In this document: in pieces, positions 22,489 to 39,369 of the stretch
Numbering within the stretch: position 1 is the stretch's first letter
Layout of the letters: each line of letters starts with the position of its first letter
NCBI GenBank assembly: GCA_963705275.1
Contig: OY970063.1
Coordinates: 1,329,039-1,393,038 of the forward strand
DNA length: 64,000 nt
Direction of reading: 5' to 3'
Origin: an uncultured delta proteobacterium
GTDB taxonomy: Bacteria; Desulfobacterota; Syntrophia; Syntrophales; UBA2185
Program-made: the position numbers and the translations under genes
Notes under the pieces: generated by a model
What the model was told of the DNA's origin: nothing
Database searches by the model: none
What the model saw: the letters and a program-made list of their open reading frames with translations, nothing else

Positions 22489-22571
22489 ATTGTCTATCCA
22501 TGCATTCATCATGTGATACTGATAAATCGTCAAGCTTGCAAAACAGATCCCGCCCTTTGATCAAGACAGTA

Positions 22572-23471
22572 TCAGCCCTCGGCCCGCTTCAGGTATTCGT
22601 TCCATCTCGTGTCAACCCACCGCTGGAGCTGCCTCAGTTGCTCGATGCTCATTTTTCGGAAGCGCCCCTGTCTCTCGACATAATTGATTACAGGCAGCTT
22701 GTTTCCTTTTTCCGCCAGTGTCTTGCTTCTTCCGGTAAAGCGAAATTTGCCATCTTCAACCTCGAAGAGGACGACGATCCCCGTCTCTACCGCAAGCCTC
22801 CCGACGCGTACCGTGTCCTTAGGTGCGTAACCCCACCCCGGAGGGCAAGGAACGGCGATCTGCATATACCGCGCTCCTTTAATGCGCTTAGCCTTGACAA
22901 ATTTATCGTACAGGTCGATCGGATATGCCGATGAAGTGGTAGCGAGATAAGGCAGGTCGTGGGCTTCCATAATTCGCAGCATATCCTTTTTGGGCTGCTG
23001 CTTGGTTAAGACCGGTGTGGTAGAGGTCAATGCGCCTATGGGTGTGGCACTGGAGCGCTGTGTACCGGTATTCATGTACCCCTCGTTGTCATAACAGACA
23101 TATATGAAGTCCGTGCCCCTTTCGGCTGCACCGCTCAGAGCCTGGATTCCCATGTCGAAAGTACCGCCGTCTCCGGCAATGGCTACGACTGTAATGTCCG
23201 TACGATTGAGGGCATTCAGGCCAGCGACAAGACCCGACGCAGAGGCCGCCGTACTGGCGAATGTACAATTGAGGGCAGGAATAGTCACGGATGTCGTCGG
23301 ATACAGGCCATGGAGAACGGTCAGGCAACAGGCCGGAAATGTCATAATCGTATTTTCACGCAATGCTTTCAGAACATAGCGGTACGCCAGGGACAGGCCG
23401 CAACCCTGACAGGCCCTCTGACCAGGGAGCATATACTCTTCAATATTAACCTTAAACAGGTTCTCTGGCAT
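22572..23471 (-). CDS. 2-oxoacid:ferredoxin oxidoreductase, beta (TPP-binding) subunit
   Basis: Motifs CQGCG and GDGGTFDMGIQALSGAAERG (TPP motif). It is part of a gamma-delta-alpha-beta operon. Substrate (pyruvate, 2-oxoisovalerate or 2-oxoglutarate) cannot be resolved. Confidence 0.85.
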   Translation of the reverse strand: MPENLFKVNIEEYMLPGQRACQGCGLSLAYRYVLKALRENTIMTFPACCLTVLHGLYPTTSVTIPALNCTFASTAASASGLVAGLNALNRTDITVVAIAGDGGTFDMGIQALSGAAERGTDFIYVCYDNEGYMNTGTQRSSATPIGALTSTTPVLTKQQPKKDMLRIMEAHDLPYLATTSSAYPIDLYDKFVKAKRIKGARYMQIAVPCPPGWGYAPKDTVRVGRLAVETGIVVLFEVEDGKFRFTGRSKTLAEKGNKLPVINYVERQGRFRKMSIEQLRQLQRWVDTRWNEYLKRAEG

Positions 23472-23475
23472 ATTC

Positions 23476-24684
23476 TCACTCCGTAAAACAGTTTAGCCAT
23501 TTCGGCACAGGTTCCGTATCCCCTGCGGCGATTGCGTCCCGTGACGATCCTACTGCCTCGGCGAGTTCCCTCGCTTTGACATCACGGCCCCCGAGGCCGC
23601 AGATGTAGTTGTGGATGGGCAACCGGATATCCGTCCCGTAAAAGGCAGCCTTTATTTCGGAACACAAAGCTCCTTCATATCCGTAGCTGATCCCCTTTTC
23701 GAATACGCAGATAGCCTTTGCCTTACTGAAAGCCGCGCGGACGTCTTCTTTCGGGAAGGGCCTAAAGACCCTTATTCCGACAACTCCGGCTTTCATACCC
23801 GCCGCCCTCAGCATATCCGCTGCCGCGGTGGCTTCGCTGGCTACAGAACCCATCCCTGCAAGTATCATCTCGGCGTCATCTGTCTTATATTGCCATAGCA
23901 TGCCGCCGTGATCTCTCCCAAAAGCCCCGGCAAATTGGCGACTCGTAGAAATAATAACATCACGAGATTCATTGAGGGCCTTCTGAAGTTTATAGCGCAT
24001 TTCCATATATCCATCACACAGCACACCCTCTGAATTAGCCCTTCGCCAAGGAAAGAGAACAGGATTGATATTCATGGGAGCTTCCGGCGACAGGATTGTA
24101 TGGGGCTTATAAGGGGGCAGGAAATCGGAGACTGCCTCAGCGTCGGGGATCTCTACGGGCATCATTGTATGAGACATGACGAAACCATCGTAGCAGATCA
24201 TGACAGGCACATAGACGGACTCGGCAATCCGGTACGCCTGAATGATGGAGTCAATGATCTCCTGGTTGTCGCGGCAGTAGATCTGTATCCAGCCTGTATC
24301 ACGCTGTGCTATGGAATCCTGCTGGTCATTGAAAATCGTCCACGGCGCTCCCACTCCCCTGTTGATGCAGCACATCACAATAGGCAGTCTCGCGCCGGCT
24401 GCCCAATGTATCTGCTCATGCATATAAAGCAGTCCCTGGGAACTGGTAGAAGTGAAGACGCGCGCCCCCACGGTGGATGCCGATATGCAAACCGCAAGCG
24501 CGGAATGCTCGGATTCAACGCGGATATATTCTGCCTTAAGTTCACCGCCCTCAATCAACTGGGAAAGCATCTCCGTTACAGAGGTCTGCGGCGTAATGGG
24601 ATAGGCCGCCACGACCTGAACATGGCTGAGCTTTGCCCCGAGAGCCGCAGCCTGGTTGCCCGTCATGATTTGTACTTCAGCCAT
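23476..24684 (-). CDS. 2-oxoacid:ferredoxin oxidoreductase, alpha subunit
   Basis: 402 aa with GNQAAALGA...VAAYPITPQT and ESEHSA motifs. It is adjacent to the beta subunit. Confidence 0.85.
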   Translation of the reverse strand: MAEVQIMTGNQAAALGAKLSHVQVVAAYPITPQTSVTEMLSQLIEGGELKAEYIRVESEHSALAVCISASTVGARVFTSTSSQGLLYMHEQIHWAAGARLPIVMCCINRGVGAPWTIFNDQQDSIAQRDTGWIQIYCRDNQEIIDSIIQAYRIAESVYVPVMICYDGFVMSHTMMPVEIPDAEAVSDFLPPYKPHTILSPEAPMNINPVLFPWRRANSEGVLCDGYMEMRYKLQKALNESRDVIISTSRQFAGAFGRDHGGMLWQYKTDDAEMILAGMGSVASEATAAADMLRAAGMKAGVVGIRVFRPFPKEDVRAAFSKAKAICVFEKGISYGYEGALCSEIKAAFYGTDIRLPIHNYICGLGGRDVKARELAEAVGSSRDAIAAGDTEPVPKWLNCFTE

Positions 24685-24970
24685 TTTTCTCCCCCTCGCT
24701 CACCATAGTAATCGCTTTTCCGGGACACTCTTCAGCGCAAATGCCGCAACCCTTGCAGTATTCCAGGTCGATTTCCAGGGGGATCGTCGCTTTGATTACT
24801 CCTTCCGGACAGTAGAGCCAGCAGAGAAAACAGGCAGCCTTTTTCTTAATGGAGGGGATGCACTTTGAATGATCACAAACTGGCCTCATATCCCGCCAGT
24901 CGCCCGTTTTCCCCGCTTCTCCAATGGCAGGTGTGGCCATGGCGGAAATATTCCTGTCTTTCTTCTTCAC
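24677..24970 (-). CDS. 2-oxoacid:ferredoxin oxidoreductase, delta subunit (2x[4Fe-4S] ferredoxin)
   Basis: 97 aa with CKGCGICAEECP plus a second Cys cluster (CFLCWLYCP). Confidence 0.8.
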   Translation of the reverse strand: MKKKDRNISAMATPAIGEAGKTGDWRDMRPVCDHSKCIPSIKKKAACFLCWLYCPEGVIKATIPLEIDLEYCKGCGICAEECPGKAITMVSEGEKNG

Positions 24971-25548
24971 AGTTTTTGTCCTCTATTGGCGGCTATTATT
25001 AAAGTCTGTTCAAATGCATCACGTAAGGCGGCAAAATTGGCAGAAGAAACGGCGCCGGATAATTTACCCTTCAGTCCTCTTTCCATCGCCTCAAGAGACA
25101 CAAGGTTTGATGCCCTGGCAAATGCCCCCAGCATCGTGGTGTTGATAATGGGTTTCCCCTCTCTGATGAGATGGTGTTTAAGTGCAATATTTCCCGCATC
25201 AACCGTGGCTACGCTGATCTTCGTATCAAAATTTAGCTCATCTGGTTTCAAGGGGGTATTGACGATGATAAGCCCCCCATCTTTGAGCGTCGCCAGAATA
25301 TTTACTGCAGAAAGGAGAGATGGATCAAGAACAATAGATATATCCGCACGCTCAATCTGCGACACCATCCGGATTGGTTCTGACGAGATCCTGGTTGATG
25401 CTGTCAACGGGGCGCCTCTTCTTTCCGGGCCGAAGGTCGGTGCGGAGGTAACCCCTTTGAATCCTTGAATATACGCTGCCTCTGCCAGAATCTGTGCAGC
25501 TATCACAACACCCTGGCCGCCTCTTCCGTGCCATATTACTTCATGCAT
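24967..25548 (-). CDS. 2-oxoacid:ferredoxin oxidoreductase, gamma subunit
   Basis: 193 aa with the typical gamma N-terminus HGRGGQGVVIAAQILAEAA. It is the first gene of the operon. Confidence 0.8.
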   Translation of the reverse strand: MHEVIWHGRGGQGVVIAAQILAEAAYIQGFKGVTSAPTFGPERRGAPLTASTRISSEPIRMVSQIERADISIVLDPSLLSAVNILATLKDGGLIIVNTPLKPDELNFDTKISVATVDAGNIALKHHLIREGKPIINTTMLGAFARASNLVSLEAMERGLKGKLSGAVSSANFAALRDAFEQTLIIAANRGQKL

Positions 25549-25570: not shown

Positions 25571-25612
25571 ATTAAAATAAAAAGGCCATGGATTTTTTGC
25601 CCATGGCCTTTT
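25571..25612 (-). terminator. Rho-independent terminator ending the hflX/TPR-membrane-protein operon
   Basis: A perfect 12-bp stem pairs aaaaggccatgg (25580-25591) with ccatggcctttt (25601-25612). On the minus strand it is followed by TTTTATTTT. Confidence 0.7.
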
Positions 25613-25829: not shown

Positions 25830-27554
25830 TCACCTGAATTTCTTCTGCACAGCCTGAGCGTTTTTGAGATTTTCCTGCGCCATTGCGTAATCCGGGTTGA
25901 GACGCAATGCCTCCCGATAACTGGCGATGGCCTCGTCAAGCCTTCCTTGATAAAGCAAGGCGCTTCCCAGATTGTTATGAGCCTTTGCATACCCCGGACT
26001 GATGCGGATGCTTTCGCGAAACTGATTAATGGCGTCATCGAGTTTCCCTTCGGATGCCAGCACTGTCCCCAAATTATAGTGTGCATCAGCTGGGTTGTTG
26101 ATGCTGATAGCCTTCTGAAAGCGGGCAATGGCTTCGTCTCTTTTACCTTGTAGGGCCAAGGCGTAACCCAGGTTGTTTTGCGCCCAGGCATTTTCCGACG
26201 TAACCTTTATGGCACGTTCATAAAGTACGATGTTGTTGCGCCAATAACCTGTCTGGGCATACGTCATAATTACGCAAGCGAGAAGAATCCCCAGGGCGGC
26301 AGAAGCAAGGGCAATTCTTCTATAACGCCAGCGATTGAGAAGTTCCGGAACTCCCCAGGCAATCATGATGAAAACGCCGATGAGGGGCACATAGGTATAG
26401 CGATCGGCCATGGACTGTAATCCCACCTGCACCAATCCAATGACCGGTACAAGCGTTCCCAGATACCAAAGCCAGCCGACTATAAGGTAGGGGAAACGCA
26501 GGGCTGTTCGAATAGTCAGGTAGGTTGCAATCATTAGTGCCAACATCGCCGATACCGCCTGCCATGAGAGCAGTGCCTCGCCCCCATAGGGATAAAAGAT
26601 GGAGAGTTTCGCGGGCCATAGCATCTTCCCGATATAGCTGACATAAGAAGTCAGTGCATTGGCAATGCGACCGCCCAAGGGATAGAGCTCCATGGGTTTC
26701 ACTACTCGATGCTGGGCATAGAAGGTTATAAAACAGAAGAGTGTGGCGACAACAAAGAATGGCGCCTTTTCTTTCAGCAACGGTCGTATCCCTAGCCACA
26801 GGGCACGGGATTTTACACTACCTTTATTCTGTGCTGTATCTTTTCCGGGTTGCTGCGATTTCTGTTTTTTTTTCGCGCGCCTCGCCGGTTGTGATGTTGC
26901 GGCAGCGATGCGGGCGCCTGACTTCGCCAAGTTGAGCCGCTTGAGGGGCCAGTAATCCAGAAGGAGAAGGACAAAGGGCAAGGTGACCAGCATCGGCTTT
27001 GACATGAGACCCAGCAGGAAGAATGCGAGTACAAAGAGATACCTCTTATATCCGGGACGTTCCACATAGTAGACATACGCCCCCATGGTGAGCATCCAGA
27101 AAAAGGTGGAGAGGACGTCCTTCCGTTCAGCCACCCAGGCGACAGACTCCACATGAAGCGGATGCAGCGCAAAAAGCCCTGCCACAAAGGCGCTCTGCCA
27201 GAGACCCCTCGTCATGCGATGTAAAATGAGAAAGAGTAAGAGAGAATTGGCGACATGAAAGAAGAGGTTGACCAGATGATGCCGTCCCGGTTTCAGTCCG
27301 AACAACTGACAGTCCGACATGTGTGAGAGCCACGTCAGCGGGTGCCAATTATGGGCATGTGGTTCGGAAATGGCCCAGATTACGCCTTTAAGAGTAATCC
27401 CGGCCTGCACATAACGGTTTTCTGTTACATAATCGTTATCATCAAAGGATATGAACTCGTGGTTTCTGACTTGCCAGAAGACCGCAGTGGTTGTTATTGA
27501 CAGGGCAATACAGATTACCAGTACTAAATATTTTCCATTTATCTTACTTGTCAT
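25830..27554 (-). CDS. Polytopic membrane + C-terminal TPR protein, TMTC/PMT-like GT-C glycosyltransferase architecture (paralog A)
   Basis: 574 aa. The first-loop acidic motif is FISFDDNDYVTEN, followed by about 10 predicted TM helices and then about 5 TPR units (AxxNLGxALxxQGxxDEAIxxxxxAxxxxP). Its ATG overlaps the stop of paralog B (ATGA). Confidence 0.65.
   Translation of the reverse strand: MTSKINGKYLVLVICIALSITTTAVFWQVRNHEFISFDDNDYVTENRYVQAGITLKGVIWAISEPHAHNWHPLTWLSHMSDCQLFGLKPGRHHLVNLFFHVANSLLLFLILHRMTRGLWQSAFVAGLFALHPLHVESVAWVAERKDVLSTFFWMLTMGAYVYYVERPGYKRYLFVLAFFLLGLMSKPMLVTLPFVLLLLDYWPLKRLNLAKSGARIAAATSQPARRAKKKQKSQQPGKDTAQNKGSVKSRALWLGIRPLLKEKAPFFVVATLFCFITFYAQHRVVKPMELYPLGGRIANALTSYVSYIGKMLWPAKLSIFYPYGGEALLSWQAVSAMLALMIATYLTIRTALRFPYLIVGWLWYLGTLVPVIGLVQVGLQSMADRYTYVPLIGVFIMIAWGVPELLNRWRYRRIALASAALGILLACVIMTYAQTGYWRNNIVLYERAIKVTSENAWAQNNLGYALALQGKRDEAIARFQKAISINNPADAHYNLGTVLASEGKLDDAINQFRESIRISPGYAKAHNNLGSALLYQGRLDEAIASYREALRLNPDYAMAQENLKNAQAVQKKFR
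26980..27207. repeat. 228-bp near-identical tract shared by paralogs A and D (copy in A)
   Basis: It matches 33617-33844 (offset +6637) with only 2 mismatches by eye. The flanking paralogous sequence is much more diverged. Confidence 0.85.
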
Positions 27555-29467
27555 TTGTTATGCATCGCAAGGGCATTTTTCAGATTATCCTCAGCCAGTT
27601 TGAAGTTGGGGTTAATTCTCAAAGCCGCACGGAAACATTCAATCGCCTCTTTAAACCTTTCTTGATGAAGCAAGGCATTCCCAAGATTGTTATGAGCCTC
27701 TGCAAAGTCAGGCTTGAGTCTGATGGCCTCACGAAAGTCGATAATTGCTTCCTCTTCTTTACCCTGGAGAGCGAGGACGTAACCTATGTAATTATGATAG
27801 GTGGCAGAATCAGGCTTGAGTCTGATAGCCTCCTTGAGGCGGGCGATTGCTTCTGCCAGTTTACCCTGACGAACCAAGGCGATGCCCGAGTTATAATTCG
27901 CATCCGAGTAGTACGGATTGATCCTTAAGGCCTCCTGATAGTCGGCAACTGCTCCCCCGTAGTCCCCCAGATTGAGCTTCGCGTTCCCCCGGTTGTAATA
28001 GGCCGCATAAAAGCTGGGATTCAGCTCAATTGCCCTGTTGTAATACGTCAATGCCTCGGATGCATCTCCCGCATCCGCCAGTGCCTTCCCATAATTACAG
28101 AACGGCCTTGCTTTATTCGGAGATTTCTTTATACAGTCACCCCAGAGGGTATAATCACTTCTCCAGACCTTGTTGCGCTCATAGGTCAATACTGTACTTG
28201 TAAAAACCATTAGGACCAGGACTGCCCAACCTACCTGCCTGTATCTGTCCCATAAGAAATAATAGGCTATACCCATCAAGACGAGGAAGAACCCAAAACT
28301 GGGCAGGTACGTCCGGTGTTCAAATATAACATTCTGGGAAATCGGGATAATGCTTGATTCCACGGACAGGGTTAAGAAAAACCAGAATATGCCAAATGCA
28401 ATCAGCCGATACCTGCGAAAAAGGATTATCCCGAGAACAAGAATCCCTGCCAGAGATAGCAGGCCAAAGATCGTATGCCATTCAAAAAGACTGTGGGAGA
28501 CCGGATAATCATAATCCATATTCTGATTTATAGGCACTATGAATAGCCTGATATATGTGAGTATGACACTAAACTGGGTGAGGAGATATTCCCATGTCGT
28601 TATGGGATAATCATAACCCTGGTCAGGAAGAGGGGGTATGGTATTAAAGATCCTGAAGGAGAAATTAAGGAAAAAGAGGACAACAAAAATCCCGAGGATA
28701 ATGATGGGAATCTGAATGCCTCTGTCTTTTATATCGATCTTCCATGCATCGGTCTTTATAAAGCTGAACTCATACAAAATAAGGGCGGCGGGCAGTGTAA
28801 AGACGATTTCCTTGGTCAGCATCCCCAGTACTGCGCACAGTATGGAACCTGCGTAGAAAAATAAGACCCGCTTATCCTTATTACCCTCCCCAAGTCTCCC
28901 CTTTACATACAAAGCCAGCGATAACAGATAAAACAGCGTGGCCAATGACGCCAATCGTTGCACTATATACGTCACCGACTGGGTCGCCAGGGGATGGGAT
29001 ACAAACAACAAGGCGGTAAATAGGGCCATTACCTCTTTATGCCTGCTTATCGGCTGAGCTCTCATTACAGGTGTCGACATCGTCAGCAGCACCAGCCACC
29101 ATACCAATACCGCATTGACAACATGTATCGCCAGATTGACGAGGTGGTATCCCCAAACATCAAGTCTATGAAAATGATAATCTAAGGCGAATGATAGATA
29201 CCCTATGGGACGGCTGGGGTAAAATCCCCACCAGGCTTTCACATCGGAAAGATTTCTTATGGCGATGTTATCCTCAATAGTCGGGACATCGTCAAAATGA
29301 AAGGAGTAATTAAAGGAGTTGGAATATGCTATTATGCCCACCAGGCATATAAGTATTATGGAAACTAGGCTCCACGGGATTTGTCGGGTTTTCCTTTCTT
29401 CTTTTCCCCCACCCGTGATGTCTTTTTGCTTCTTCTTAGAAACTTTCAGTGCCTGTCTCTTCCCCAC
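27551..29467 (-). CDS. Polytopic membrane + TPR protein, TMTC/PMT-like (paralog B)
   Basis: 638 aa with a GTG start and GGGAGG as RBS. It has FHFDDVPTIEDN, a multi-TM core and 5-6 TPR units. The N-terminal 470 aa are near-identical to paralog C. Confidence 0.65.
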   Translation of the reverse strand: MGKRQALKVSKKKQKDITGGGKEERKTRQIPWSLVSIILICLVGIIAYSNSFNYSFHFDDVPTIEDNIAIRNLSDVKAWWGFYPSRPIGYLSFALDYHFHRLDVWGYHLVNLAIHVVNAVLVWWLVLLTMSTPVMRAQPISRHKEVMALFTALLFVSHPLATQSVTYIVQRLASLATLFYLLSLALYVKGRLGEGNKDKRVLFFYAGSILCAVLGMLTKEIVFTLPAALILYEFSFIKTDAWKIDIKDRGIQIPIIILGIFVVLFFLNFSFRIFNTIPPLPDQGYDYPITTWEYLLTQFSVILTYIRLFIVPINQNMDYDYPVSHSLFEWHTIFGLLSLAGILVLGIILFRRYRLIAFGIFWFFLTLSVESSIIPISQNVIFEHRTYLPSFGFFLVLMGIAYYFLWDRYRQVGWAVLVLMVFTSTVLTYERNKVWRSDYTLWGDCIKKSPNKARPFCNYGKALADAGDASEALTYYNRAIELNPSFYAAYYNRGNAKLNLGDYGGAVADYQEALRINPYYSDANYNSGIALVRQGKLAEAIARLKEAIRLKPDSATYHNYIGYVLALQGKEEEAIIDFREAIRLKPDFAEAHNNLGNALLHQERFKEAIECFRAALRINPNFKLAEDNLKNALAMHNK

Positions 29468-29480
29468 ACTGCCTCCCGGT
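27803..29480. repeat. 1.68-kb direct repeat, copy 1 (5' two-thirds of paralog B plus its RBS)
   Basis: It aligns to 30135-31812 at a constant offset of +2332. Bases 28151-28762 are identical base-for-base to 30483-31094 (612 bp, compared line by line). The flanks carry scattered substitutions. Confidence 0.9.
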
Positions 29481-29549
29481 TACTATATCAAACTTCCCAT
29501 CGCCGCACATGAACTGAAATGGTTGTGTCAATTTGAAGCACGACACGTC

Positions 29550-31799
29550 CTAAAATTTAGGAGAGGGGCCTTGTCGGTTCTTTCTCTCCTGAACAAGGGC
29601 CTTGTTGAGGTTCTTCTGCGCCATTACGTAGTCTGGCTTGAGACGGACAGCCTGACGGAAATTGTCAATCGCTTCATCAATTTTACCGCGGAGAAGCAAA
29701 ATATTTCCCAAATTGTTATAGGCCTTGGCATAGTCCGGCCTGATGCGGATACATTCACGAAAATGGGAAATAGCCTCATCAAGTTTTCCCTGCGTGGCCA
29801 GGACGGTACCCAAGCTGTAATGGACAGCCGCATTGGCGGGGTTGATTTTGAGAGCCTTGAAGAAAATGAGTATGGCCTCGTCAAGCCTACCCTGCTTCGT
29901 TAAGGCAAGGCCCATGTTGTTATAGGAGTCGGTTAGCTTGGGATCAATACGCACTGCCTCGGCATAATGGCCGATGGCGTCATCAAGCCGGCCCTCCTCC
30001 TCCAGGGCATTGCCCAGGTTGTTTTCAGCATCTGCAGAATCAGGCTTGAGTCTGATGGCCTCACGGAACTGAATAATAGCCTCCCCCGTCTCACCCCGGC
30101 GAGCAAGTAGATTACCCAAATTGTAATGATAATCTGCAGAATCAGGCTTAAGTCTGATGGCCTCCTTGAGGCGGGCGATTGCTTCTGCCAGTTTGCCCTG
30201 ACGAGCCAAGGCGATACCCGAGTTATAATTCGCATCCGAGTAGTACGGATTGATCCTTAAGGCCTCCTGATAGTCGGCAACTGCTCCCCCGTAGTCCCCC
30301 AGATTGAGCTTCGCGTTCCCCCGGTTGTAATAAGCCGTATAAAAGCTGGGATTCAGCTCAATTGCCCTGTTGTAATACGTCAATGCCTCGGATACATTCC
30401 CCATATCGAGCAACGCACTCCCATAGTTACTCAACAGCCTTGCTTTATTCGGAGATTTCTTTATACAGTCACCCCACAGAGTATAATCACTTCTCCAGAC
30501 CTTGTTGCGCTCATAGGTCAATACTGTACTTGTAAAAACCATTAGGACCAGGACTGCCCAACCTACCTGCCTGTATCTGTCCCATAAGAAATAATAGGCT
30601 ATACCCATCAAGACGAGGAAGAACCCAAAACTGGGCAGGTACGTCCGGTGTTCAAATATAACATTCTGGGAAATCGGGATAATGCTTGATTCCACGGACA
30701 GGGTTAAGAAAAACCAGAATATGCCAAATGCAATCAGCCGATACCTGCGAAAAAGGATTATCCCGAGAACAAGAATCCCTGCCAGAGATAGCAGGCCAAA
30801 GATCGTATGCCATTCAAAAAGACTGTGGGAGACCGGATAATCATAATCCATATTCTGATTTATAGGCACTATGAATAGCCTGATATATGTGAGTATGACA
30901 CTAAACTGGGTGAGGAGATATTCCCATGTCGTTATGGGATAATCATAACCCTGGTCAGGAAGAGGGGGTATGGTATTAAAGATCCTGAAGGAGAAATTAA
31001 GGAAAAAGAGGACAACAAAAATCCCGAGGATAATGATGGGAATCTGAATGCCTCTGTCTTTTATATCGATCTTCCATGCATCGGTCTTTATAAAACTGAA
31101 TTCATAGAGGACAAGGGCAAATGGCAGTGTAAAAACGATCTCCTTGGTCAGCATCCCCAGTATCGCACACAGTATGGAACCTGCGTAGAAAAATAAGACC
31201 CGCTTATCTTTATTACCCTCCCCAAGTCTCCCCTTTACATACAGCGCCAGCGACAACAGATAAAACAGCGTGGCCAATGAAGCCAACCGCTGCACTATAT
31301 ATGTCACCGACTGGGTCGCCAGGGGATGCGATACGAAAAGCAAAGCAGCAAAAAGGGCCATTGACATTTTGTGCCGGCTCATAGGCTGACTTCTCATTAC
31401 AGGTGTCGACATCGTCAGCAGCACCAGCCACCATACCAATACGGCATTGATAACATGTATCGCCAGATTAACGAGGTGGTATCCCCAAACATCAAGTCTA
31501 TGAAAATGATAATCTAAGGCGAATGATAGATACCCTATGGGACGGCTGGGGACAAACCCCCACCATGCCTTAACATTGGAAAGATTCCTTATTGTGATAT
31601 TCTCTTCAATGTTCAGATGATCATCAAAATGAAAGGAGCAATTAAAGGAGTTGGAATAAGCGATCATACCCACAAGGCATATAAGTATTATAGATATAAA
31701 GCCCCATGGGACGTGTCGGGATTTTTCTTCTTTCTTTTCCCCACCCGCCATGTCTTTCTGCTTCTTCTTAGAAATTTTCAGTGCCTGTCTCTTCCCCAC
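29550..31799 (-). CDS. Polytopic membrane + TPR protein, TMTC/PMT-like (paralog C)
   Basis: 749 aa with the same start context as B and FHFDDHLNIEEN. The TPR array is longer, at about 8-9 units. Confidence 0.65.
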   Translation of the reverse strand: MGKRQALKISKKKQKDMAGGEKKEEKSRHVPWGFISIILICLVGMIAYSNSFNCSFHFDDHLNIEENITIRNLSNVKAWWGFVPSRPIGYLSFALDYHFHRLDVWGYHLVNLAIHVINAVLVWWLVLLTMSTPVMRSQPMSRHKMSMALFAALLFVSHPLATQSVTYIVQRLASLATLFYLLSLALYVKGRLGEGNKDKRVLFFYAGSILCAILGMLTKEIVFTLPFALVLYEFSFIKTDAWKIDIKDRGIQIPIIILGIFVVLFFLNFSFRIFNTIPPLPDQGYDYPITTWEYLLTQFSVILTYIRLFIVPINQNMDYDYPVSHSLFEWHTIFGLLSLAGILVLGIILFRRYRLIAFGIFWFFLTLSVESSIIPISQNVIFEHRTYLPSFGFFLVLMGIAYYFLWDRYRQVGWAVLVLMVFTSTVLTYERNKVWRSDYTLWGDCIKKSPNKARLLSNYGSALLDMGNVSEALTYYNRAIELNPSFYTAYYNRGNAKLNLGDYGGAVADYQEALRINPYYSDANYNSGIALARQGKLAEAIARLKEAIRLKPDSADYHYNLGNLLARRGETGEAIIQFREAIRLKPDSADAENNLGNALEEEGRLDDAIGHYAEAVRIDPKLTDSYNNMGLALTKQGRLDEAILIFFKALKINPANAAVHYSLGTVLATQGKLDEAISHFRECIRIRPDYAKAYNNLGNILLLRGKIDEAIDNFRQAVRLKPDYVMAQKNLNKALVQERKNRQGPSPKF

Positions 31800-31812
31800 A
31801 CTGCCTCCCGGT
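30135..31812. repeat. 1.68-kb direct repeat, copy 2 (5' two-thirds of paralog C plus its RBS)
   Basis: See copy 1. Identity stops 13 nt upstream of the GTG start (after cccggt) and within the first shared TPR units. Confidence 0.9.
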
Positions 31813-31950
31813 GGATATTTTCAACGGTAGCGAGCATAAACAAATAATATACTTGAGCGCGTCAAATTTTACATCCAATGCGCCGCCTCGCAATGAAGAC
31901 AGCGGGCGCAAATTACAATATATCTTGTCCAGGCATAGTCTGGACCACGC

Positions 31951-34188
31951 CTATCGTGTCTTTCCCCGTTGGGCAAGAGCAACTTGAAGATTGTTATGCG
32001 CCTCTTTATAGTCCGGCCGTATCTGTAACGCTTGACGAAAATGGGAAATAGCTTCATCCAGCTTGCCTTTGCGGGCGAGTATAATACCCATATTGTTATG
32101 GGCTTCCGCATATCTTGGTTTAATCTGCAGCGCCCTGGAATAATCAACTAACGCTTCATCAAGATTTCCCTTCTTAGCCAAGGTCTTTCCCATGGCGAAA
32201 TAATTTTCCGGGTTAGAGGGCATAAGGCGAATGGCCTCCCTAAGATGTGTAACAGCCTCATCAAGATTTCCTTTTTGCATTAATGCTAACCCTAAATTTG
32301 TATGTGCTTCGGCATAGTCAGGTTTTATCTCCAAGGCTTTGACAAAACAATCCATTGCGTTATCAAGGTTGCCACGCATAGCCCTTATGACACCCATGTT
32401 AAGGATTGTTTCGGGATCGAAAGGATCAATGCGGTTTGCCTGATGGAAATAGGACATTGCTTCGTCAATATTGCCTTTCTGCATCGAAGCTAACCCTAAA
32501 TTGTACTGAGCGTTGTCACGCTCCGGCTTGATGCGGATGGATTCTCGAAAGTGATAAATGGCTTCATCCAGTTTCCCCTGTGAGGCCAAGACAGTCCCCA
32601 GGTTGTAGTGGGCTGCCGCATGATTGGAGTTGATTCTAAGAGCCTTGAGGAAATTTGTTATGGCTTCATCGGCTCTTCCCTGCTTAGTCAAGGCAAGACC
32701 CATATTGTTATAGGAGTCTGGCAGATTAGGATCAATCCGCACTGCCTCGGCATAATGGGCCATGGCCTCATCAAGCCTGCCTTCAGCCTCCAAAACAGTT
32801 CCCATATTGTTTAACATTATAGGATTATTGGATGTCTTCTCCAAGGCATGCTTAAACAGGGTATTGCTGTTTTGCCAGTAACCCACCTGCTTCCATGTTA
32901 CGAATGAAAAGAGGCAAAGTATGATGGCAGTAACCGTTGCAAAAGCGGCATTCCGATGTCTCCAATTTTTTAAAAGCTCAGGTACACCCCAGGCAGCCAT
33001 GATAGAAATACCGATAAGGGGTACATAGGTATAACGGTCCGCCATCGCCTGCACCCCCACCTGGACAAGACCGATGACGGGAACCAGTGTCCCCAGATAC
33101 CAGAGCCACCCCGTCATGAGATACGGGTAACGCTTTACGTTCCGGATAATCAAAAAGGTTGTCAGGCCAAGAAAGAGACCCGCCCCAATGACCCGCCAGA
33201 CCGGAGTCGTGCCGGGGTATGGATAAAGAACGGCAAGATCAGCAGGCCAGACCATCTTCCCAATATAACCACAGTAAGAAACAAGTGCATTTGCGACGCG
33301 AGATGACAAGGGGAAGCTTTGCGGAGAACCCACGGCCCCGCCCTTCAGCTGGGCCATGTATGTAACTACACTCGATGCCAGAGAAAAGACAAAGAAGGGA
33401 ACCTTTTCCAGGATAATCTGGCCGATGGCAGGCTGTTGCCGGGTCCTATTGTCAGTCTTATTTGCATGCTCTTCTTTTATTGCGGTCCTTCCGCGTTCCT
33501 TCTTCTTGCCGTGTGGTTTCACGAGCCTTTCAGATTTCACACTATCAACTGCTAATGGTCTTTCCATCTGTAAACGACGGAGGGGCCAGTAATCAAGAAG
33601 GAGCAGGACAAAAGGTAAGGTGACCAGCATCGGCTTTGACATGAGACCTAGCAGGAAGAATGCGAGTACAAAGAGATACCTCTTATATCCGGGATGTTCC
33701 ACATAGTAGACATACGCCCCCATGGTGAGCATCCAGAAAAAGGTGGAGAGGACGTCCTTCCGTTCAGCCACCCAGGCGACAGACTCCACATGAAGCGGAT
33801 GCAGCGCAAAAAGCCCTGCCACAAAGGCGCTCTGCCAGAGACCCTTAGTCATTCGGTGAAGAATGAAAAAGAGCAATAAGGTGTTTGCTACGTGGAATAG
33901 GAGATTTACTAAATGATGCAAACCTGGCTTCAATCCGAACAACTGACAGTCCAGCATGTGGGAAAGCCAGGTCAGGGGATGCCAGTTGCTCACATAGAAG
34001 GTTGTAAAAGCCCAGGCAGCGTTCCCAGACGTCAGACCGGTCTGTACATGACGGTTTTCCGTTATGTATCTGTTGTCATCAAAATTGACAAAATCGTGAC
34101 TGTTCACCTGCCAGTAAATGGAAATGATAGTTATCGCCAAGAAGAGGCATATCAAGAATGTGCGGTGGCTGTAATCTGACTCATTCAT
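31951..34188 (-). CDS. Polytopic membrane + TPR protein, TMTC/PMT-like (paralog D)
   Basis: 745 aa with FVNFDDNRYITEN. The membrane core resembles paralog A, followed by about 9 TPR units. Its ATG overlaps the hflX stop (TAATG). Confidence 0.65.
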   Translation of the reverse strand: MNESDYSHRTFLICLFLAITIISIYWQVNSHDFVNFDDNRYITENRHVQTGLTSGNAAWAFTTFYVSNWHPLTWLSHMLDCQLFGLKPGLHHLVNLLFHVANTLLLFFILHRMTKGLWQSAFVAGLFALHPLHVESVAWVAERKDVLSTFFWMLTMGAYVYYVEHPGYKRYLFVLAFFLLGLMSKPMLVTLPFVLLLLDYWPLRRLQMERPLAVDSVKSERLVKPHGKKKERGRTAIKEEHANKTDNRTRQQPAIGQIILEKVPFFVFSLASSVVTYMAQLKGGAVGSPQSFPLSSRVANALVSYCGYIGKMVWPADLAVLYPYPGTTPVWRVIGAGLFLGLTTFLIIRNVKRYPYLMTGWLWYLGTLVPVIGLVQVGVQAMADRYTYVPLIGISIMAAWGVPELLKNWRHRNAAFATVTAIILCLFSFVTWKQVGYWQNSNTLFKHALEKTSNNPIMLNNMGTVLEAEGRLDEAMAHYAEAVRIDPNLPDSYNNMGLALTKQGRADEAITNFLKALRINSNHAAAHYNLGTVLASQGKLDEAIYHFRESIRIKPERDNAQYNLGLASMQKGNIDEAMSYFHQANRIDPFDPETILNMGVIRAMRGNLDNAMDCFVKALEIKPDYAEAHTNLGLALMQKGNLDEAVTHLREAIRLMPSNPENYFAMGKTLAKKGNLDEALVDYSRALQIKPRYAEAHNNMGIILARKGKLDEAISHFRQALQIRPDYKEAHNNLQVALAQRGKTR
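33617..33844. repeat. 228-bp near-identical tract shared by paralogs A and D (copy in D)
   Basis: See 26980-27207. Confidence 0.85.
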
Positions 34189-35915
34189 TACAGGGGCATC
34201 GACCTTGATTCGACAGGATTCATCCTCAGGCGGGTCTGATTGACCACTGCTTCTATCCTCTCAACAAGAGGTGAAAGGGTTTCGGGTTTAAGAGCCGATA
34301 TGGCTATAGAGCTAAATCGTCGACAGAGGTTTTGCAGAATTCCCTTGTCGAGGAAACGGTCCTCCTTGTTGAAAACACGGATGGTCGGCTTTCCGACGAT
34401 TGCAAGTTCCTCCAGAATTTTCTCAACTGCCGCTATATGACTTTCAAAATTCGGGTTGCTTATGTCAATTACATGCAGAAGAACATCGGCGTCATGCAGT
34501 TCATCAAGGGTCGCTCGGAAGGCAGCGAAGAGATCCCGGGGAAGGTCCCGGATAAAACCCACCGTATCGGTAATAATGGCCTCAGTATCACGTGGAAAGC
34601 GGAGTCTCGAACTTTTCGGGTCGAGGGTCGCAAACAGACGGTCCTCCGTGAAGACCCTGCTTTCTGTGAGTGTATTCAAGAGCGTCGATTTCCCGGCATT
34701 TGTGTAGCCTACGATAGAGATTATGGGAAGACCCATTTTCCCCCGTTTGATGCGGCGCTGCTTTCTTGCCCTCTCGATCTGTTGCATCTCACGTTCGAGG
34801 CGGTGGATTCGATCCCTCACACGGCGCCGGTTTATCTCAAGCTTTGTTTCACCCGGCCCCGTCCCCCCAATGCCTCCCGTGAGCCTCGACATGGCAGTAT
34901 TTTTTGTCACCAGCCTGGGGAGGAGATATTTCAACTGGGCAAGTTCTACCTGGAGCTTGCCTTCTCTGCTGTGGGCGCGTCTGGCGAAGATATCGAGAAT
35001 AATCTGGGTGCGGTCCACGACCTTCATCTCTGTAAAATCCGTGATGGATCTTAGCTGTGCCGGTTGCAATTCATGGTCAAAGATGAGGAGATTAGCCCCT
35101 ATCTGCATTGCCCTGATGACGAGCTCCGACATCCTTCCCCGGCCAAGGATGAATCGGGGATCTATCTGCTCTCTGTACTGAATAATGCTGTCGAAGACCT
35201 CAACCCCGCAGGACCGGGCAAGCTCCTTCAGTTCGTCCAAGGAGTTTCGACTGTCGGCAAGCGGGGCCGTTTCTACACGTATCAGTATGGCACGGTCCGT
35301 AGAATCTACCTTCCTCGTCTTCTGTTTTCTTGCGAATTCGCCCTCCAGGGCCTGGATAAAGGCCAGGAAATTGATATTCATCTCCGAAGGACGGTCCTTC
35401 TCCATGATAAGCCAGTACCTGCCATCGGGGTTTTCCGGGATCAGGTGGGCCGTGTGGGCGTAACCGGGAAGCCCATCTTCCCCGGTCTCAACCGCTGAGA
35501 TGAGATCGAGGCGGAGCAGGGCCAGGTCGGTGAGGTCATCAGTGGTTAGCCCCTCACCATTCAAATGGGTGTGGATTAGGCGGAGGCCCTTGAAGCGAGT
35601 GGAAGAAGATCGGAAGCCATCGAGGCCGGGGATCATGATATCTTTGGGAGAGCCGGCGATCACATAGGCGATCTCGCCTCTGCGGCTGATCAGGATGCCT
35701 ATCTGACGGTTGATTTCCCGCGAAAGAGATGTGAGTTGTCTCGCAAGTTCGTGGGTAATGATACGCTCCGGAGGTATCTTCCTCCGATAGAGCTGACCGA
35801 TTCTTCTTATCTGTTCTGCCCCGAGACCGGTCAGGTTGCCATAGACCTTATTGATTGCCCGCCCCCTTGCTTTCGGCCTGACGCGCGGCCATCCTTCTGG
35901 CCAGACGTTCCTCAA
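34188..35915 (-). CDS. hflX: GTPase HflX
   Basis: HflX N-domain plus a G-domain with GYTNAGKSTLLNTL (G1), DTVGF (G3) and NKED (G4). The TTG start at 35915 overlaps the upstream zinc-ribbon gene by 68 nt, so the real start is uncertain. Confidence 0.85.
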   Translation of the reverse strand: MRNVWPEGWPRVRPKARGRAINKVYGNLTGLGAEQIRRIGQLYRRKIPPERIITHELARQLTSLSREINRQIGILISRRGEIAYVIAGSPKDIMIPGLDGFRSSSTRFKGLRLIHTHLNGEGLTTDDLTDLALLRLDLISAVETGEDGLPGYAHTAHLIPENPDGRYWLIMEKDRPSEMNINFLAFIQALEGEFARKQKTRKVDSTDRAILIRVETAPLADSRNSLDELKELARSCGVEVFDSIIQYREQIDPRFILGRGRMSELVIRAMQIGANLLIFDHELQPAQLRSITDFTEMKVVDRTQIILDIFARRAHSREGKLQVELAQLKYLLPRLVTKNTAMSRLTGGIGGTGPGETKLEINRRRVRDRIHRLEREMQQIERARKQRRIKRGKMGLPIISIVGYTNAGKSTLLNTLTESRVFTEDRLFATLDPKSSRLRFPRDTEAIITDTVGFIRDLPRDLFAAFRATLDELHDADVLLHVIDISNPNFESHIAAVEKILEELAIVGKPTIRVFNKEDRFLDKGILQNLCRRFSSIAISALKPETLSPLVERIEAVVNQTRLRMNPVESRSMPL

Positions 35916-36072
35916 ATCTCTCCCTGCTGTGGAAGCTGGCGCGCCCTATCAACTTCTTGGTATTCGGTGACCCGCATTCGGGACATGTCACACCCGCCTG
36001 ATCTTCACCGACCTTCATGAAGCATTCAAAGATATGCTCGCAGGCAGCGCATTCAAATTCATAGATAGGCAT
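35848..36072 (-). CDS. FmdB-family zinc-ribbon protein (CxxC...CxxC)
   Basis: 74 aa. MPIYEFECAACEHIFECFMKVGEDQAGVTCPECGS is the typical FmdB/CxxC_CxxC_SSSS N-terminus. Confidence 0.8.
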   Translation of the reverse strand: MPIYEFECAACEHIFECFMKVGEDQAGVTCPECGSPNTKKLIGRASFHSRERFEERLARRMAARQAESKGAGNQ

Positions 36073-36144: not shown

Positions 36145-36180
36145 ACAAAAAACCCCGGAGGGGTATCCCCCCGGGGTTTT
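36145..36180 (-). terminator. Rho-independent terminator after the porin gene
   Basis: The minus-strand RNA reads AAAACCCCGGGGGGAUACCCCUCCGGGGUUUUUUGUGU, a GC stem followed by a U6 run, 25 nt past the porin stop. Confidence 0.75.
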
Positions 36181-36204: not shown

Positions 36205-37635
36205 TTAGAAGGTGAGGGTCAGTTTATGAGTTACGAGATAGTCGTTATCGATTGAGGCTCCTGCATTGGTGCCCTTCCAGTAGTCACCCGCCCACAGATA
36301 GGCAAAGCCGATCATGTAGGAGAGGTTGTCATAGATCTTGTAGGTTGCCGTAACATCAAGCTCGCTACCGTAGTTCTTGGACTGCCAACCACTTGATGTG
36401 GCATCCTTGTCCGCCTGGGCAATTGTATAGCTCGCCTTTACATCCAGTTTCGGTACTGGCTTTATGCCGAAGAAGAGCTGGGCCAACTGCACGTTGCTCA
36501 TTTGGCTATTGGTCCCTGCATACCCATAGGCTCCACTCACGCCGTTAGCCGAGCTACCTAAGCCACCATTCCACCTGCCCAAGTCATAGTTGAAAAGCAT
36601 CAAGCAGGGGTTGAAGTCGGTGCCCCCTGGAGGACCCTGTTCATCCTTATCCAACGTGCCTTTGTCGTCACCCGCCACATAGACAAGCGTAAGACCTGCG
36701 TACATAGGCGCGAAATCATAGGTACCCGAGACATAGGCAGCGAGTCCATCACGTGTTATGTCCGTGTTCGCTGCATTGGAACCTTCATACTTTCTCGCCT
36801 TGCCTGTCCAGTAAGCAACTTCCGCTTCGACATAGACAGGACCGAGCTGGGCCTTCACGTAAGGGTCAAATACCCAGAACTGGCCCTTGTAGCCCGTTTC
36901 AGCATTAGCAGCAACTGCCGGACCGGAGGCATTGCTGAGGAGATAGTAATATACGAGTAAACCCGTATTCCCCTTCGCCCAGTTATAAACAAAGGCGCCG
37001 ACATACTTTTCCGCAGTTGCATCTACCTGATAGCTTGCGACCCCCACGTTACCTGCAGGGCCAGAAGCGCTATAGTACTGGGTGCCTTCGATCTTGTCCA
37101 AGAGGGCAATAAGCGTCCACGGACCGATAACGTAATCGTATCTAATCCTTGGGCCATAGGTAGAATCGCCGCTATCTGCAAATGAGGTGCCGAACACTGA
37201 CTGCTGCTGGTAGCCGACCCTCAAGAGGCCGCCCCACAGATTAGCAGACACATATATGTGCTCGAACTTGATGTTTTCCGCTTCCAGGTTGTTCCCGGAG
37301 CTGTCACCTGAGGTGGGACCGGTAACGGAATAAACTCCCGTTGTGCTATTCAGGGAAACCCCAATAGGCGCCCTCTGTGCACCCCAGATCTTTTCCATGG
37401 CATCGAACCTGGTCGTCAGCTTCAGGCCTTCCTGTACCTGGAAATCCGTCTGAACCCTGAGCCTCTGCCAGATATTGGCCACGGATGCGCCGCCATCTTT
37501 CAACAGCGTGCGGTTGTTGTCATAGTAACCCTGGGCGACATAGGTGCCGCTGAACTTCACGTCCGCCGCACATACGGGCATAGCAAAGGCCATGATCAGG
37601 GCAACTGATAGTAAAACTATCCAAAGCTTCTTCAT
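36205..37635 (-). CDS. Outer-membrane beta-barrel porin (family unassigned)
   Basis: 476 aa with signal peptide MKKLWIVLLSVALIMAFAMPVCA/AD. It shows alternating amphipathic beta-strand composition rich in G/Y/N/D and ends in the OMP signature ...HKLTLTF with terminal Phe. Confidence 0.65.
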   Translation of the reverse strand: MKKLWIVLLSVALIMAFAMPVCAADVKFSGTYVAQGYYDNNRTLLKDGGASVANIWQRLRVQTDFQVQEGLKLTTRFDAMEKIWGAQRAPIGVSLNSTTGVYSVTGPTSGDSSGNNLEAENIKFEHIYVSANLWGGLLRVGYQQQSVFGTSFADSGDSTYGPRIRYDYVIGPWTLIALLDKIEGTQYYSASGPAGNVGVASYQVDATAEKYVGAFVYNWAKGNTGLLVYYYLLSNASGPAVAANAETGYKGQFWVFDPYVKAQLGPVYVEAEVAYWTGKARKYEGSNAANTDITRDGLAAYVSGTYDFAPMYAGLTLVYVAGDDKGTLDKDEQGPPGGTDFNPCLMLFNYDLGRWNGGLGSSANGVSGAYGYAGTNSQMSNVQLAQLFFGIKPVPKLDVKASYTIAQADKDATSSGWQSKNYGSELDVTATYKIYDNLSYMIGFAYLWAGDYWKGTNAGASIDNDYLVTHKLTLTF

Positions 37636-38232: not shown

Positions 38233-39213
38233 TTACAACAGGGCTTGATGATCTTTTACCATATCTATATCCATCTTGATGTTGCGCCCCTGCGTTGTCA
38301 GATAATTGCCGATCATCAGGCCATTTGCACCGGCAAGCATAACCCAGGATTGGTAATCCCTGAGAGTCACTTCTCTCCCGCCGCAGATAAGAATATTCTT
38401 GTCGGGATTAATAAATCTGAATATGGCGATGCACTTCAGCGCCTCCAGGGGCTTGAGCAGGGGTCTATCTTCCATCTTGGTACCGGCAATGGGATTAAGA
38501 AAATTTATCGGTATCCCGTCAACATCGAGTTCCTTCAGAGTAAAGGCCAGTTCCACGCGCTGCTCCCAGGTCTCACCAAGTCCCAGGATACCTCCCGAAC
38601 AGACCTTCATCCCTGCGGCCTTGGCAAGCTTGACAGTCTCAATATCCTCGTCATAGTTATGCGTGGTGCAAACTTCGTCAAAAAAACTCCGGGCCGTTTC
38701 CAGATTGTGATGATAAACGGCAATCCCTCCTTCTGCGAGCCTGCGCGCCATAGACTCGGTGAGCATCCCCAGAGAGGCGCAGACCGTGAGGGCCGTTTGT
38801 TTGCAAATGGCGGTGGCACTATGGCAGATGACATCCAGCTCCTCATCTTTCAGCATATATCCGCTTGTGACCATGGAATACCTGGTAGCTCCTCTCCTCT
38901 CCAATTCAATCGCGCTTTTCACAATCTCTTCTTCAGCCAATAGGGGATAGGTCTTGATCTCCGTTCTATGGTGAGCAGATTGGGCGCAGAAGGCGCAATC
39001 TTCGGAGCAGAAACCCGATTTGGCATTGATGATGGAACACAGAATGGTTTCTTCTTGCCTCCGCATTTTTTTGATTTTATGGGCGCAGAATAATAAGTCC
39101 ATCGTATCCTTTTCCTGAAGTTGTGCAAGTTCACAGGCATCTTCGTAGGAAAAGACATACCCGCCTTCCTTTATAATCTTCTCAGTTAGATCGATGAGTT
39201 GCTTGCTGAACAT
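38233..39213 (-). CDS. bioB: Biotin synthase (radical SAM)
   Basis: It has the CSEDCAFCAQS radical-SAM CxxxCxxC motif, GATRYSMVTSG and a C-terminal YLTTQGR-type motif (NYLTTQGRN). Confidence 0.9.
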   Translation of the reverse strand: MFSKQLIDLTEKIIKEGGYVFSYEDACELAQLQEKDTMDLLFCAHKIKKMRRQEETILCSIINAKSGFCSEDCAFCAQSAHHRTEIKTYPLLAEEEIVKSAIELERRGATRYSMVTSGYMLKDEELDVICHSATAICKQTALTVCASLGMLTESMARRLAEGGIAVYHHNLETARSFFDEVCTTHNYDEDIETVKLAKAAGMKVCSGGILGLGETWEQRVELAFTLKELDVDGIPINFLNPIAGTKMEDRPLLKPLEALKCIAIFRFINPDKNILICGGREVTLRDYQSWVMLAGANGLMIGNYLTTQGRNIKMDIDMVKDHQALL

Positions 39214-39309
39214 GTCCTTCTCCTTTCCTGCAATTTGTCTATTTAGCGGGAATTAACCCAGTACTTGGCTGTATGAGAGAGCAATTGTCCATATCAGAGG
39301 GCAAGACAT

Positions 39310-39341
39310 AAGTCAACCATATTTATATTTAGGGTTGACAA
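39310..39341. promoter_or_regulatory. Probable BirA operator (bioO) in the bioB/birA divergent region
   Basis: Inverted repeat aGTCAACC-N14(atatttatatttag)-GGTTGACa with 7-bp perfect arms and an AT-rich spacer. It resembles E. coli bioO (TGTAAACC...GGTTTACA) as I recall it. It lies 29 nt upstream of birA and about 100 nt upstream of bioB. Confidence 0.65.
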
Positions 39342-39369
39342 TTACTCGGGAGGATGTTATGAGCCGCGC

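Follow-up and report, generated by a model that had tools for sequence, protein, structure and literature searches.

Bacterial homologues of animal TMTC1-4 in a tandem array beside hflX of an uncultured Syntrophales bacterium

The locus described here raises the question of what a series of four tandem genes for membrane proteins with C-terminal tetratricopeptide repeat (TPR) arrays may do, and why it directly follows hflX, a gene of ribosome rescue. The genes, A to D, lie in a 64,000-nt window (the whole stretch of DNA that was analysed) of an uncultured delta proteobacterium (Syntrophales; UBA2185; assembly GCA_963705275.1, contig OY970063.1), where the open reading frames (ORFs) of the minus-strand string reported in the original prediction were all found, in the order FmdB, hflX, D, C, B, A. 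In the explanation that we favour, and consider fairly probable, A-D are inner-membrane GT-C glycosyltransferases, bacterial homologues of animal TMTC1-4, which would act in the periplasm with a polyprenyl-phosphate-sugar as the donor, most likely on exported proteins, and which owe their place next to hflX to an insertion. The homology and the architecture of these proteins are supported by the comparisons described below, while we infer their chemistry and their substrate. The four genes are the following.

31951-34188, minus strand: paralog D, 745 aa; A/D-type TMTC-like GT-C membrane domain (about 1-440) and 8 TPR units
29550-31799, minus strand: paralog C, 749 aa; B/C-type TMTC-like membrane domain and 8 TPR units; GTG start
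27551-29467, minus strand: paralog B, 638 aa; B/C-type TMTC-like membrane domain and 5 TPR units; GTG start
25830-27554, minus strand: paralog A, 574 aa; A/D-type TMTC-like membrane domain, 3 TPR units and a capping helix

Rather than four equal paralogs, as first described, they form two pairs, with pairwise identities of 57% for A and D, 87% for B and C, and 26-28% between the A/D and B/C types. The number of TPR units, counted from AlphaFold helices and Pfam TPR_2 segments, is 3 in A, 5 in B, 8 in C and 8 in D, each with an additional capping helix, and replaces the earlier count of 5-9.

Profile homology of the membrane domains

In full-length Pfam and NCBIfam searches the TPR models (Pfam TPR_1/TPR_2, at E values from 1e-24 to 1e-70) swamp everything else. 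The membrane domains were compared separately by hhalign. The reference was a profile of an alignment in which the membrane domains of 24 animal TMTC1-4 proteins have been published (PMC7801869, Additional file 1), and the bacterial proteins were represented by membrane-only profiles of approximately 50 homologues per type. The A/D type aligned with the TMTC profile with a probability of 99.3% (E 1.5e-20, 378 columns) and the B/C type with one of 99.8% (E 9.2e-28, 370 columns), in both cases from TM1, the first transmembrane helix (TM), through TM11. The two bacterial types also aligned with each other (98.9%, E 3.7e-17; 98.6% in an independent run with smaller alignments), and both scored higher against the TMTCs than against each other. 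For the B/C membrane domain the hhalign scores were 207 with the animal TMTCs and 131 with the A/D type. Five column-shuffled and one reversed TMTC profile gave probabilities of at most 0.7%, and single sequences of the polytopic GT-C enzymes ArnT, STT3, PglB and Pmt1 gave less than 1% even with the TMTC profile itself, so that the latter comparison serves only as a composition control. Thus, composition does not explain the match to the TMTCs. Furthermore, a plain hidden Markov model (HMM) of the TMTC alignment matches in the window only the four ORFs A-D, with 79-93 bits. At the level of sequence, this evidence is decisive in placing A-D as bacterial homologues of animal TMTC1-4 within a wider TMTC-like superfamily, and the TMTC architecture and GT-C/PMT relation of the original prediction are thereby supported over all 11 helices.

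Topology, conserved motifs and the putative reaction

Plain hydropathy gave inconsistent numbers of helices (8-11) and was replaced by AlphaFold helices combined with TMTC homology, which yield 11 helices rather than the approximately 10 initially proposed. With these 11 helices, Lys and Arg reach a density of 0.28-0.30 in the putative cytoplasmic loops, against 0.06-0.09 in the putative periplasmic ones, every conserved motif is found on a loop assigned as periplasmic, and the chain exits TM11 on the side assigned as periplasmic. For the TMTCs a topology with a cytosolic N-terminus and a lumenal TPR array has experimental support. From the 11 helices and the positive-inside rule, the TPR arrays of A-D are predicted to be periplasmic.

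In TMTCs, seven motifs surround the modelled dolichyl-phosphate mannose (Dol-P-Man) and metal (Eisenhaber et al., PMC7801869). They were mapped on the bacterial types through the hhalign alignments and conservation lists, as follows.

Motif 1, DD: D59-D60 in the B/C type, invariant; D38-D39 in the A/D type, invariant
Motif 2, SHKSYRP: S-R86-P87 in the B/C type; H66..W70-H71-P72 in the A/D type
Motif 3, RxD: R171 only in the B/C type; R144-K-D146 in the A/D type
Motif 4, KE(T/Q)xxT: K219-E220..T224 in the B/C type; K186..T191 in the A/D type, where P187 replaces E
Motif 5, DW: D320-Y321 in the B/C type; D lost in the A/D type
Motif 6, PxxP: P375 (second P) in the B/C type; P370 (second P) in the A/D type
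Motif 7, ERxxY: E383-H-R385-x-Y387 in the B/C type; D384-R385..Y388 in the A/D type

The DD pair is invariant in all 52 A/D-type and 53 B/C-type sequences and in both aligns with the DD of TMTCs; the four first-loop segments that drew attention to it (FISFDDNDY, FHFDDVPT, FHFDDHLN and FVNFDDNRY) are all present as originally quoted. Thus, each subfamily retains the presumed catalytic DD and most of the predicted ligand-binding positions.

Information on the donor comes from sister loci in which a single A/D-type gene occupies the space between hflX and the genes of POR, a 2-oxoacid:ferredoxin oxidoreductase. The order of genes is hflX, 154-aa gene, PMT-like gene, 129-aa gene, GT2, A/D-type gene, second GT2 and POR in L004 (7279-12944); hflX, 154-aa gene, PMT-like gene, GT2, A/D-type gene and POR in L132 (4451-9405); and hflX, GT2 and A/D-type gene in L144 (1471-2587). 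The genes around the A/D-type gene in these islands may constitute a complete three-component glycosylation module. The PMT-like protein has 357 residues and a weak PMT match, and the 129-aa protein is a membrane protein. A GT2 gene is also found beside or near a TMTC-like gene in about 14 of 80 loci of other phyla. The best NCBIfam matches of the approximately 250-aa GT2 proteins are PpgS (polyprenyl-phospho-GalNAc synthase), Dol-P-hexose transferase, AglJ, PgfS and ArnC, all far below the family cut-offs and indicating a resemblance in class only. GT2 enzymes of the Dpm1/PpgS class make the polyprenyl-monophosphate sugars that are the donors of PMT, TMTC and ArnT-type GT-C enzymes. Motif conservation, the positive-inside rule and the Dpm1-like GT2 genes of the sister loci give indirect support to a lipid-linked donor and a periplasmic TPR array. 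We infer a polyprenyl-phosphate-sugar as the donor, by an argument of guilt by association that speaks for the class of donor rather than for a particular sugar.

On these grounds, a membrane domain of 11 helices with a cytoplasmic N-terminus would have the loop with the presumed catalytic DD, as well as the remaining conserved loops, exposed to the periplasm. A Dpm1/PpgS-like GT2, encoded elsewhere in the genome, would form the polyprenyl-phosphate-sugar at the cytoplasmic face of the membrane; each of A-D would take the sugar from it, and the periplasmic TPR array, of 3, 5, 8 or 8 units, would select or hold the acceptor, most likely an exported protein by analogy with the TMTCs. By the same analogy, it is plausible that the TPR arrays differ in substrate recognition.

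A number of results speak against this reading. Pfam and NCBIfam do not place the four membrane domains. The scores of A (23.4-23.5 bits) and D (23.9 bits) with PMT_2 (PF13231) are below the gathering threshold of 26.1 bits, and the membrane domains of B and C have no PMT_2 match; of the A/D-type homologues tested, 10/10 touch PMT_2, with a best E value of 4.5e-7 and some of them above threshold. Even at E<=1, the B/C-type membrane domain lacks a match to any Pfam-A model. DUF1736 (PF08409) matches none of A, B, C and D even at E<=10, in the same run in which the N-terminal segment of human TMTC3, as the positive control, matched it with 1.1e-31; the DUF1736 loop of the TMTCs does align with the window proteins in hhalign. 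Thus, the window proteins lack the DUF1736 match characteristic of true animal TMTCs, and under the Pfam threshold they do not belong to PMT_2 either. The original prediction had named a failure of profile searches as fatal to it, and with Pfam, apart from the strong TPR matches, this is nearly what was obtained, but the hhalign alignments with TMTC1-4 overturn that outcome. Searches of the PDB sequences by phmmer and hmmsearch gave no match, whether D or one of the two subfamily profiles (A/D or B/C) was the query, and Foldseek of the full-length A model against the PDB returned TPR and OGT matches only. The AlphaFold models are of moderate confidence (pLDDT 70 and 75, pTM 0.64 and 0.71), poorest in the functionally important loops. 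No homologue of the GT2, PMT-like, 129-aa and 154-aa genes of the sister loci was found in the 64-kb window, and literature searches, within the library used, found no characterised bacterial TMTC-like or TPR-GT-C protein, in agreement with the original statement that the bacterial members are uncharacterised. As for the motifs, the B/C type lacks the D of RxD, and both residues modelled as metal ligands of TMTCs, intact in the B/C type, are missing in the A/D type (E replaced by P187; D of DW lost). Finally, the acceptor could be a glycan or a lipid instead of a protein.

The loss of the two putative metal ligands in the A/D type, together with the frequent mixed AD-BC arrays among the closest relatives, would be expected if some or all copies were catalytically dead scaffolds, the A/D type in particular serving as the partner of an active B/C subunit in a heterodimer similar to Pmt1-Pmt2. 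This is very improbable. The A/D type retains the invariant DD, HP.H.E...R.D, K186/T191 and DRxxY, with 43-58% identity of the membrane domain across phyla, as is typical of an active site, and A/D-only arrays are present in many genomes. Furthermore, the metal ligands were assigned in a homology model, which its authors describe as preliminary (PMC7801869).

With respect to the acceptor, the enzymes might decorate lipid A or the lipopolysaccharide core, an exopolysaccharide or peptidoglycan, as in ArnT- or GtrABC-like systems, in which case the TPR array would dock to an assembly machine. A and D touch a single Pfam family, PMT_2, which also includes ArnT-type enzymes; modules of a GT2 and a GT-C in this layout are a common route to extracytoplasmic glycan modification (PMC11127046); kdtA lies 3.3 kb downstream of the array; and the TPR arrays score well with periplasmic TPR models of the PilF, BcsC, PgaA and LapB type. 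However, such TPR matches are generic and all far under the family cut-offs, the adjacency of kdtA is ancestral synteny, present also without the array, and the closest characterised relatives by profile are the TMTCs, which act on proteins. A non-protein acceptor is, thus, unlikely, and exported proteins are retained as the preferred substrates of A-D.

The gene string and its linkage to hflX

The other elements of the string, in order of transcription except for the two terminators listed last, are the following.

35848-36072, minus strand: FmdB-family CxxC zinc-ribbon gene, first of the string, 74 aa (TIGR02605, PF09723)
34188-35915, minus strand: hflX, 575 aa from TTG at 35915 (TIGR03156)
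31800-31950, minus strand: D-C intergenic gap, 151 nt, no terminator, fold z -1.17, one weak promoter-like match at 31893-31866
29468-29549, minus strand: C-B intergenic gap, 82 nt, no terminator, fold z +0.62
25580-25612, minus strand: intrinsic terminator after A, closing the string; 13-bp stem followed by a T run, -21.9 kcal/mol, z -4.48
36149-36180, minus strand: intrinsic terminator of the gene that precedes FmdB, delimiting the transcription unit on its 5' side; 14-bp stem with 9 GC pairs, -29.3 kcal/mol, z -5.06

The FmdB protein matches TIGR02605 (E 1.1e-15, 57.5 bits versus a cut-off of 31.3) and PF09723 (E 6.8e-15, 55.3 bits versus 34.4), and HflX the TIGR03156 equivalog (E 6.7e-132, 439.7 bits versus 216.75), with the GTP-bdg_N, GTP-bdg_M and MMR_HSR1 domains in residues 224-517. 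No in-frame canonical start of hflX other than TTG 35915 was found; its 5' end overlaps the 3' end of the FmdB gene by 68 nt in a different frame (35848-35915, minus strand), and the identical 575-aa call, with the identical overlap, is made in the Syntrophales locus L001. The N-terminal approximately 200 residues of HflX have no Pfam family match, yet are about 90% conserved among the nearest relatives.

At the hflX/D junction (...CTGTAATGAATGAG) the TAA stop and the ATG start have one base in common, and at the B/A junction (...AACAAATGACAAGT) there is an ATGA overlap. Both overlaps had been correctly read in the original prediction. D and C, and C and B, do not overlap but are split by the gaps of 151 and 82 nt. 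Identical GGGAGG sequences precede the GTG starts of B and C. The strong terminator after A (25612-25580) was recovered as predicted, with 0/200 shuffles folding as well, and no shuffle folds as well as the upstream terminator (36180-36149). As for signals that might separate hflX from the paralogs, no terminators were found, and the promoter scan gave 20 matches versus 18.4 expected by chance, the best candidate being that in the D-C gap (31893-31866), so that the scan neither supports nor excludes an internal promoter. The strong terminators at both ends, with none inside, the overlapping junctions and the conserved ribosome-binding sites of B and C point to a single transcription unit. In the nearest relatives, too, the hflX stop overlaps the start of the array, by 1 nt in L001 and by 4 nt in L003; with the lack of terminators, this makes it likely that hflX and the array are co-transcribed and translationally coupled in this lineage. 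Thus, the array is probably co-transcribed with FmdB-hflX, and its first gene probably translationally coupled to hflX. Antisense ORFs on the plus strand (e.g. 34332-35054 and 29319-29903) have no family match and were rejected as spurious. Between A and the terminator there are small ORFs, which show no conservation with the small genes that were called at the L001 and L003 loci.

The flanks consist of housekeeping genes (window positions 20335-25548 and 38233-41851), namely POR gamma/delta/alpha/beta, kdtA and rpe downstream, and bioB, birA and a class-III aminotransferase (bioA-like) upstream, in the same order as in the loci L001 and L003 of Syntrophales metagenome-assembled genomes (MAGs). 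The 476-aa product of the ORF at 36205-37635 (minus strand) matches only Alginate_exp, and weakly (E 4.4e-4), and probably forms an outer-membrane beta-barrel; throughout the clade its gene is conserved directly upstream of FmdB-hflX, whether or not a TMTC-like array is present. Further away, a c-di-GMP-I riboswitch aptamer (RF01051, 80.8 bits, E 2.5e-14) is found at 10758-10849 (minus strand), upstream of the ORF at 9763-10650 (minus strand).

The distribution of the hflX-linked copies, a check suggested in the original prediction, was determined in a scan centred on the HflX protein, in which 80 metagenome loci were annotated locally and loci with room downstream were counted. Of the loci in which the hflX product and that of the window share at least 84% identity, 13/13 have a TMTC-like gene next on the same strand. 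At 64-83% identity, POR directly follows hflX in 22 of 50 loci; in 23 nothing was recognised within 3 kb, two carry arrays on the opposite strand and three a TMTC-like gene on the same strand. In other phyla, only two of 80 loci of the TMTC-like family lie within 8 kb of hflX. Such linkage in the near relatives, versus the mostly POR-adjacent hflX of the distant ones and the rarity elsewhere, indicates a lineage-specific insertion. The ancestral order of the clade is outer-membrane-barrel-like gene, FmdB, hflX, POR gamma, delta, alpha and beta, and the array is best explained as an island of variable content, inserted after hflX and ahead of POR within a narrow lineage. Thus, the linkage, which had been left unexplained, is largely accounted for by insertion between hflX and the POR operon in the closest relatives only.

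The same data bear on the alternative of a functional linkage, according to which the array forms part of a stress regulon of HflX, envelope glycosylation being turned on with ribosome rescue and the stoichiometry being set by translational coupling. The overlaps in the window, L001 and L003, the absence of a terminator between hflX and the array, and the adjacency kept in all 13 close loci despite the changing composition of the array are in line with it. However, the adjacency is absent from most of the less similar loci and is rare in other phyla, the first gene after hflX may be of either subfamily, and unrelated island genes intervene in L004 and L132. The pattern fits an insertion hot spot, and co-transcription needs no common function. 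This alternative is, therefore, improbable. Distinctly improbable is also its extended form, in which the HflX operon captured periplasmic protein O-glycosyltransferases so that glycosylation is co-induced with, and stoichiometrically coupled to, stress, while A/D and B/C form heteromeric pairs like Pmt1-Pmt2 that address different clients through their TPR arrays. Literature searches found no link between hflX and TPR-glycosyltransferases, and nothing points to a functional tie of ribosome rescue with glycosylation; insertion is, thus, the preferred account of the position of the array.

Two subfamilies, their spread and comparison with known systems

The A/D and B/C types are two old subfamilies, within which the copies of the window contain the following identical tracts.

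28149-28762, minus strand: tract in B identical to C 30481-31094; 614 nt, perfect identity
30481-31094, minus strand: tract in C identical to B 28149-28762; 614 nt, perfect identity
27059-27207, minus strand: tract in A identical to D 33696-33844; 149 nt, within a near-identical patch of about 240 nt
33696-33844, minus strand: tract in D identical to A 27059-27207; 149 nt, perfect identity

The DNA beside the 614-nt tract is 81-95% identical between B and C, while outside the patch A and D share only about 50% of their DNA sequence, with values of 0.3-0.5 at third codon positions. The 149-nt tract spans the conserved HPLHVESVAWVAERKD loop. Perfect tracts inside otherwise diverged paralogs indicate recent gene conversion between tandem copies; for the 614-nt tract, gene conversion or a very recent duplication may be considered. 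Divergence is greatest at the TPR ends, where B and C are 26% identical over the final 38 residues and C has about three more TPR units than B. The complete hflX-linked arrays contain one to four genes, ordered AD-BC-AD, AD-AD, BC-AD, AD-AD-BC-AD or AD, and the order AD-BC-BC-AD of the window is the only one of its kind in the 80-locus sample, which fits a very recent duplication of B/C. Thus, the evolution of the array involves tandem duplication and gene conversion as well as a shifting number of TPR units.

Word-indexed searches with the membrane domains of the two types retrieved 6,360 proteins in one case and at least 8,000 in the other, mostly from Syntrophales or Smithella MAGs, annotated as 'TPR repeat protein', 'PilF', 'TadD' or 'protein O-mannosyl-transferase' (JGI). 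With the B membrane domain, phmmer against 1.84 billion representatives of clusters at 50% identity gave 53,339 matches at E<=1e-3, 27,888 at E<=1e-10 and 7,831 at E<=1e-30. A/D-type loci number at least 596 (one genome per species), with 43-58% identity to A, in Thermodesulfobacteriota, Planctomycetota, Verrucomicrobiota, Acidobacteriota, Ignavibacteria, Gemmatimonadota, Armatimonadota and others. As a rule, such loci contain 2-7 paralogs in tandem. Five to seven A/D-type genes are in tandem in L043 (1389-17135), L022, L038 and L070 (Planctomycetota, Geobacter and Sedimentisphaerales), the Geobacter locus L038 having six copies, and L117 carries a four-gene array convergent with hflX. The family is already known, in that pipelines annotate it routinely and prokaryotic homologues are mentioned in the literature, and the locus is a fairly ordinary member of it that does not itself make the substrate question more tractable. 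It is, at the same time, a clean example of the two subfamilies together, with gene conversion, variable TPR length and an insertion datable by hflX. The bacterial TMTC homologues emerge as an enormous family, with arrays in many anaerobe-rich phyla. Should they prove to be periplasmic protein O-glycosyltransferases, the glycosylation of proteins would be far wider than appreciated in Thermodesulfobacteriota, Planctomycetota, Verrucomicrobiota and Acidobacteriota, and the family would provide prokaryotic models for the disease-linked human TMTCs.

Among known systems, GtrA/GtrB/GtrX, ArnC/ArnEF/ArnT and PgfS/PgfM would share with the proteins discussed here the general scheme in which a GT2 makes the polyprenyl-phosphate-sugar, which is moved by a flippase and from which a GT-C passes on the sugar outside the cytoplasm, and L004, L132, L144 and others do place a PpgS/AglJ/ArnC-like GT2 beside the A/D-type gene. 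However, the window contains neither a GT2 nor a flippase gene, and the GT-C partners of the three-component systems lack TPR arrays. PMT/POMT (GT39) and ArnT (GT83) are likewise GT-C enzymes, with polyprenyl-phosphate monosaccharide donors, as proposed also for A-D, and with an acidic D-D/E pair in the first loop, and PMT_2 is touched by the A/D-type homologues. They differ in the PMT_2 match, sub-threshold in A and D and absent in B and C, and in the lack of a TPR array in PMT and ArnT themselves; the window proteins, in turn, lack the MIR domain of PMT, and no PDB relative of theirs is detectable by HMM. TMEM260 (GT117) is an O-mannosyltransferase that likewise has an 11-TM GT-C domain and a C-terminal TPR-like region, and distant bacterial homologues of it have been reported (PMC10214176). 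The DUF2723/PMT_2 signatures of TMEM260 were not detected in the window proteins (PMT_2 being sub-threshold in the A/D type), and it is with the TMTCs that the latter align specifically and over the full length.

With respect to animal TMTC1-4 (CAZy GT105), the window proteins differ in the missing DUF1736 match, in the reduction of SHKSYRP to SRP (B/C) or H..WHP (A/D), in the change of DW to DY (B/C) or its loss (A/D), in the P that takes the place of the E of KE..T in the A/D type, in their TPR number (3-8) and in the donor, which would be an undecaprenyl-type phosphate sugar instead of Dol-P-Man. They have in common with them an N-terminal 11-TM GT-C domain followed by a C-terminal TPR array, the profile homology over the full length of the membrane domain (hhalign 99.3-99.8%), the DD in the first extracytoplasmic loop, the conserved HP.HTE..R.D-like loop, K(E)..T, the P in TM9 and the [DE]R..Y loop, and, as predicted for the window proteins, the location of the TPR array on the non-cytoplasmic side of the membrane.

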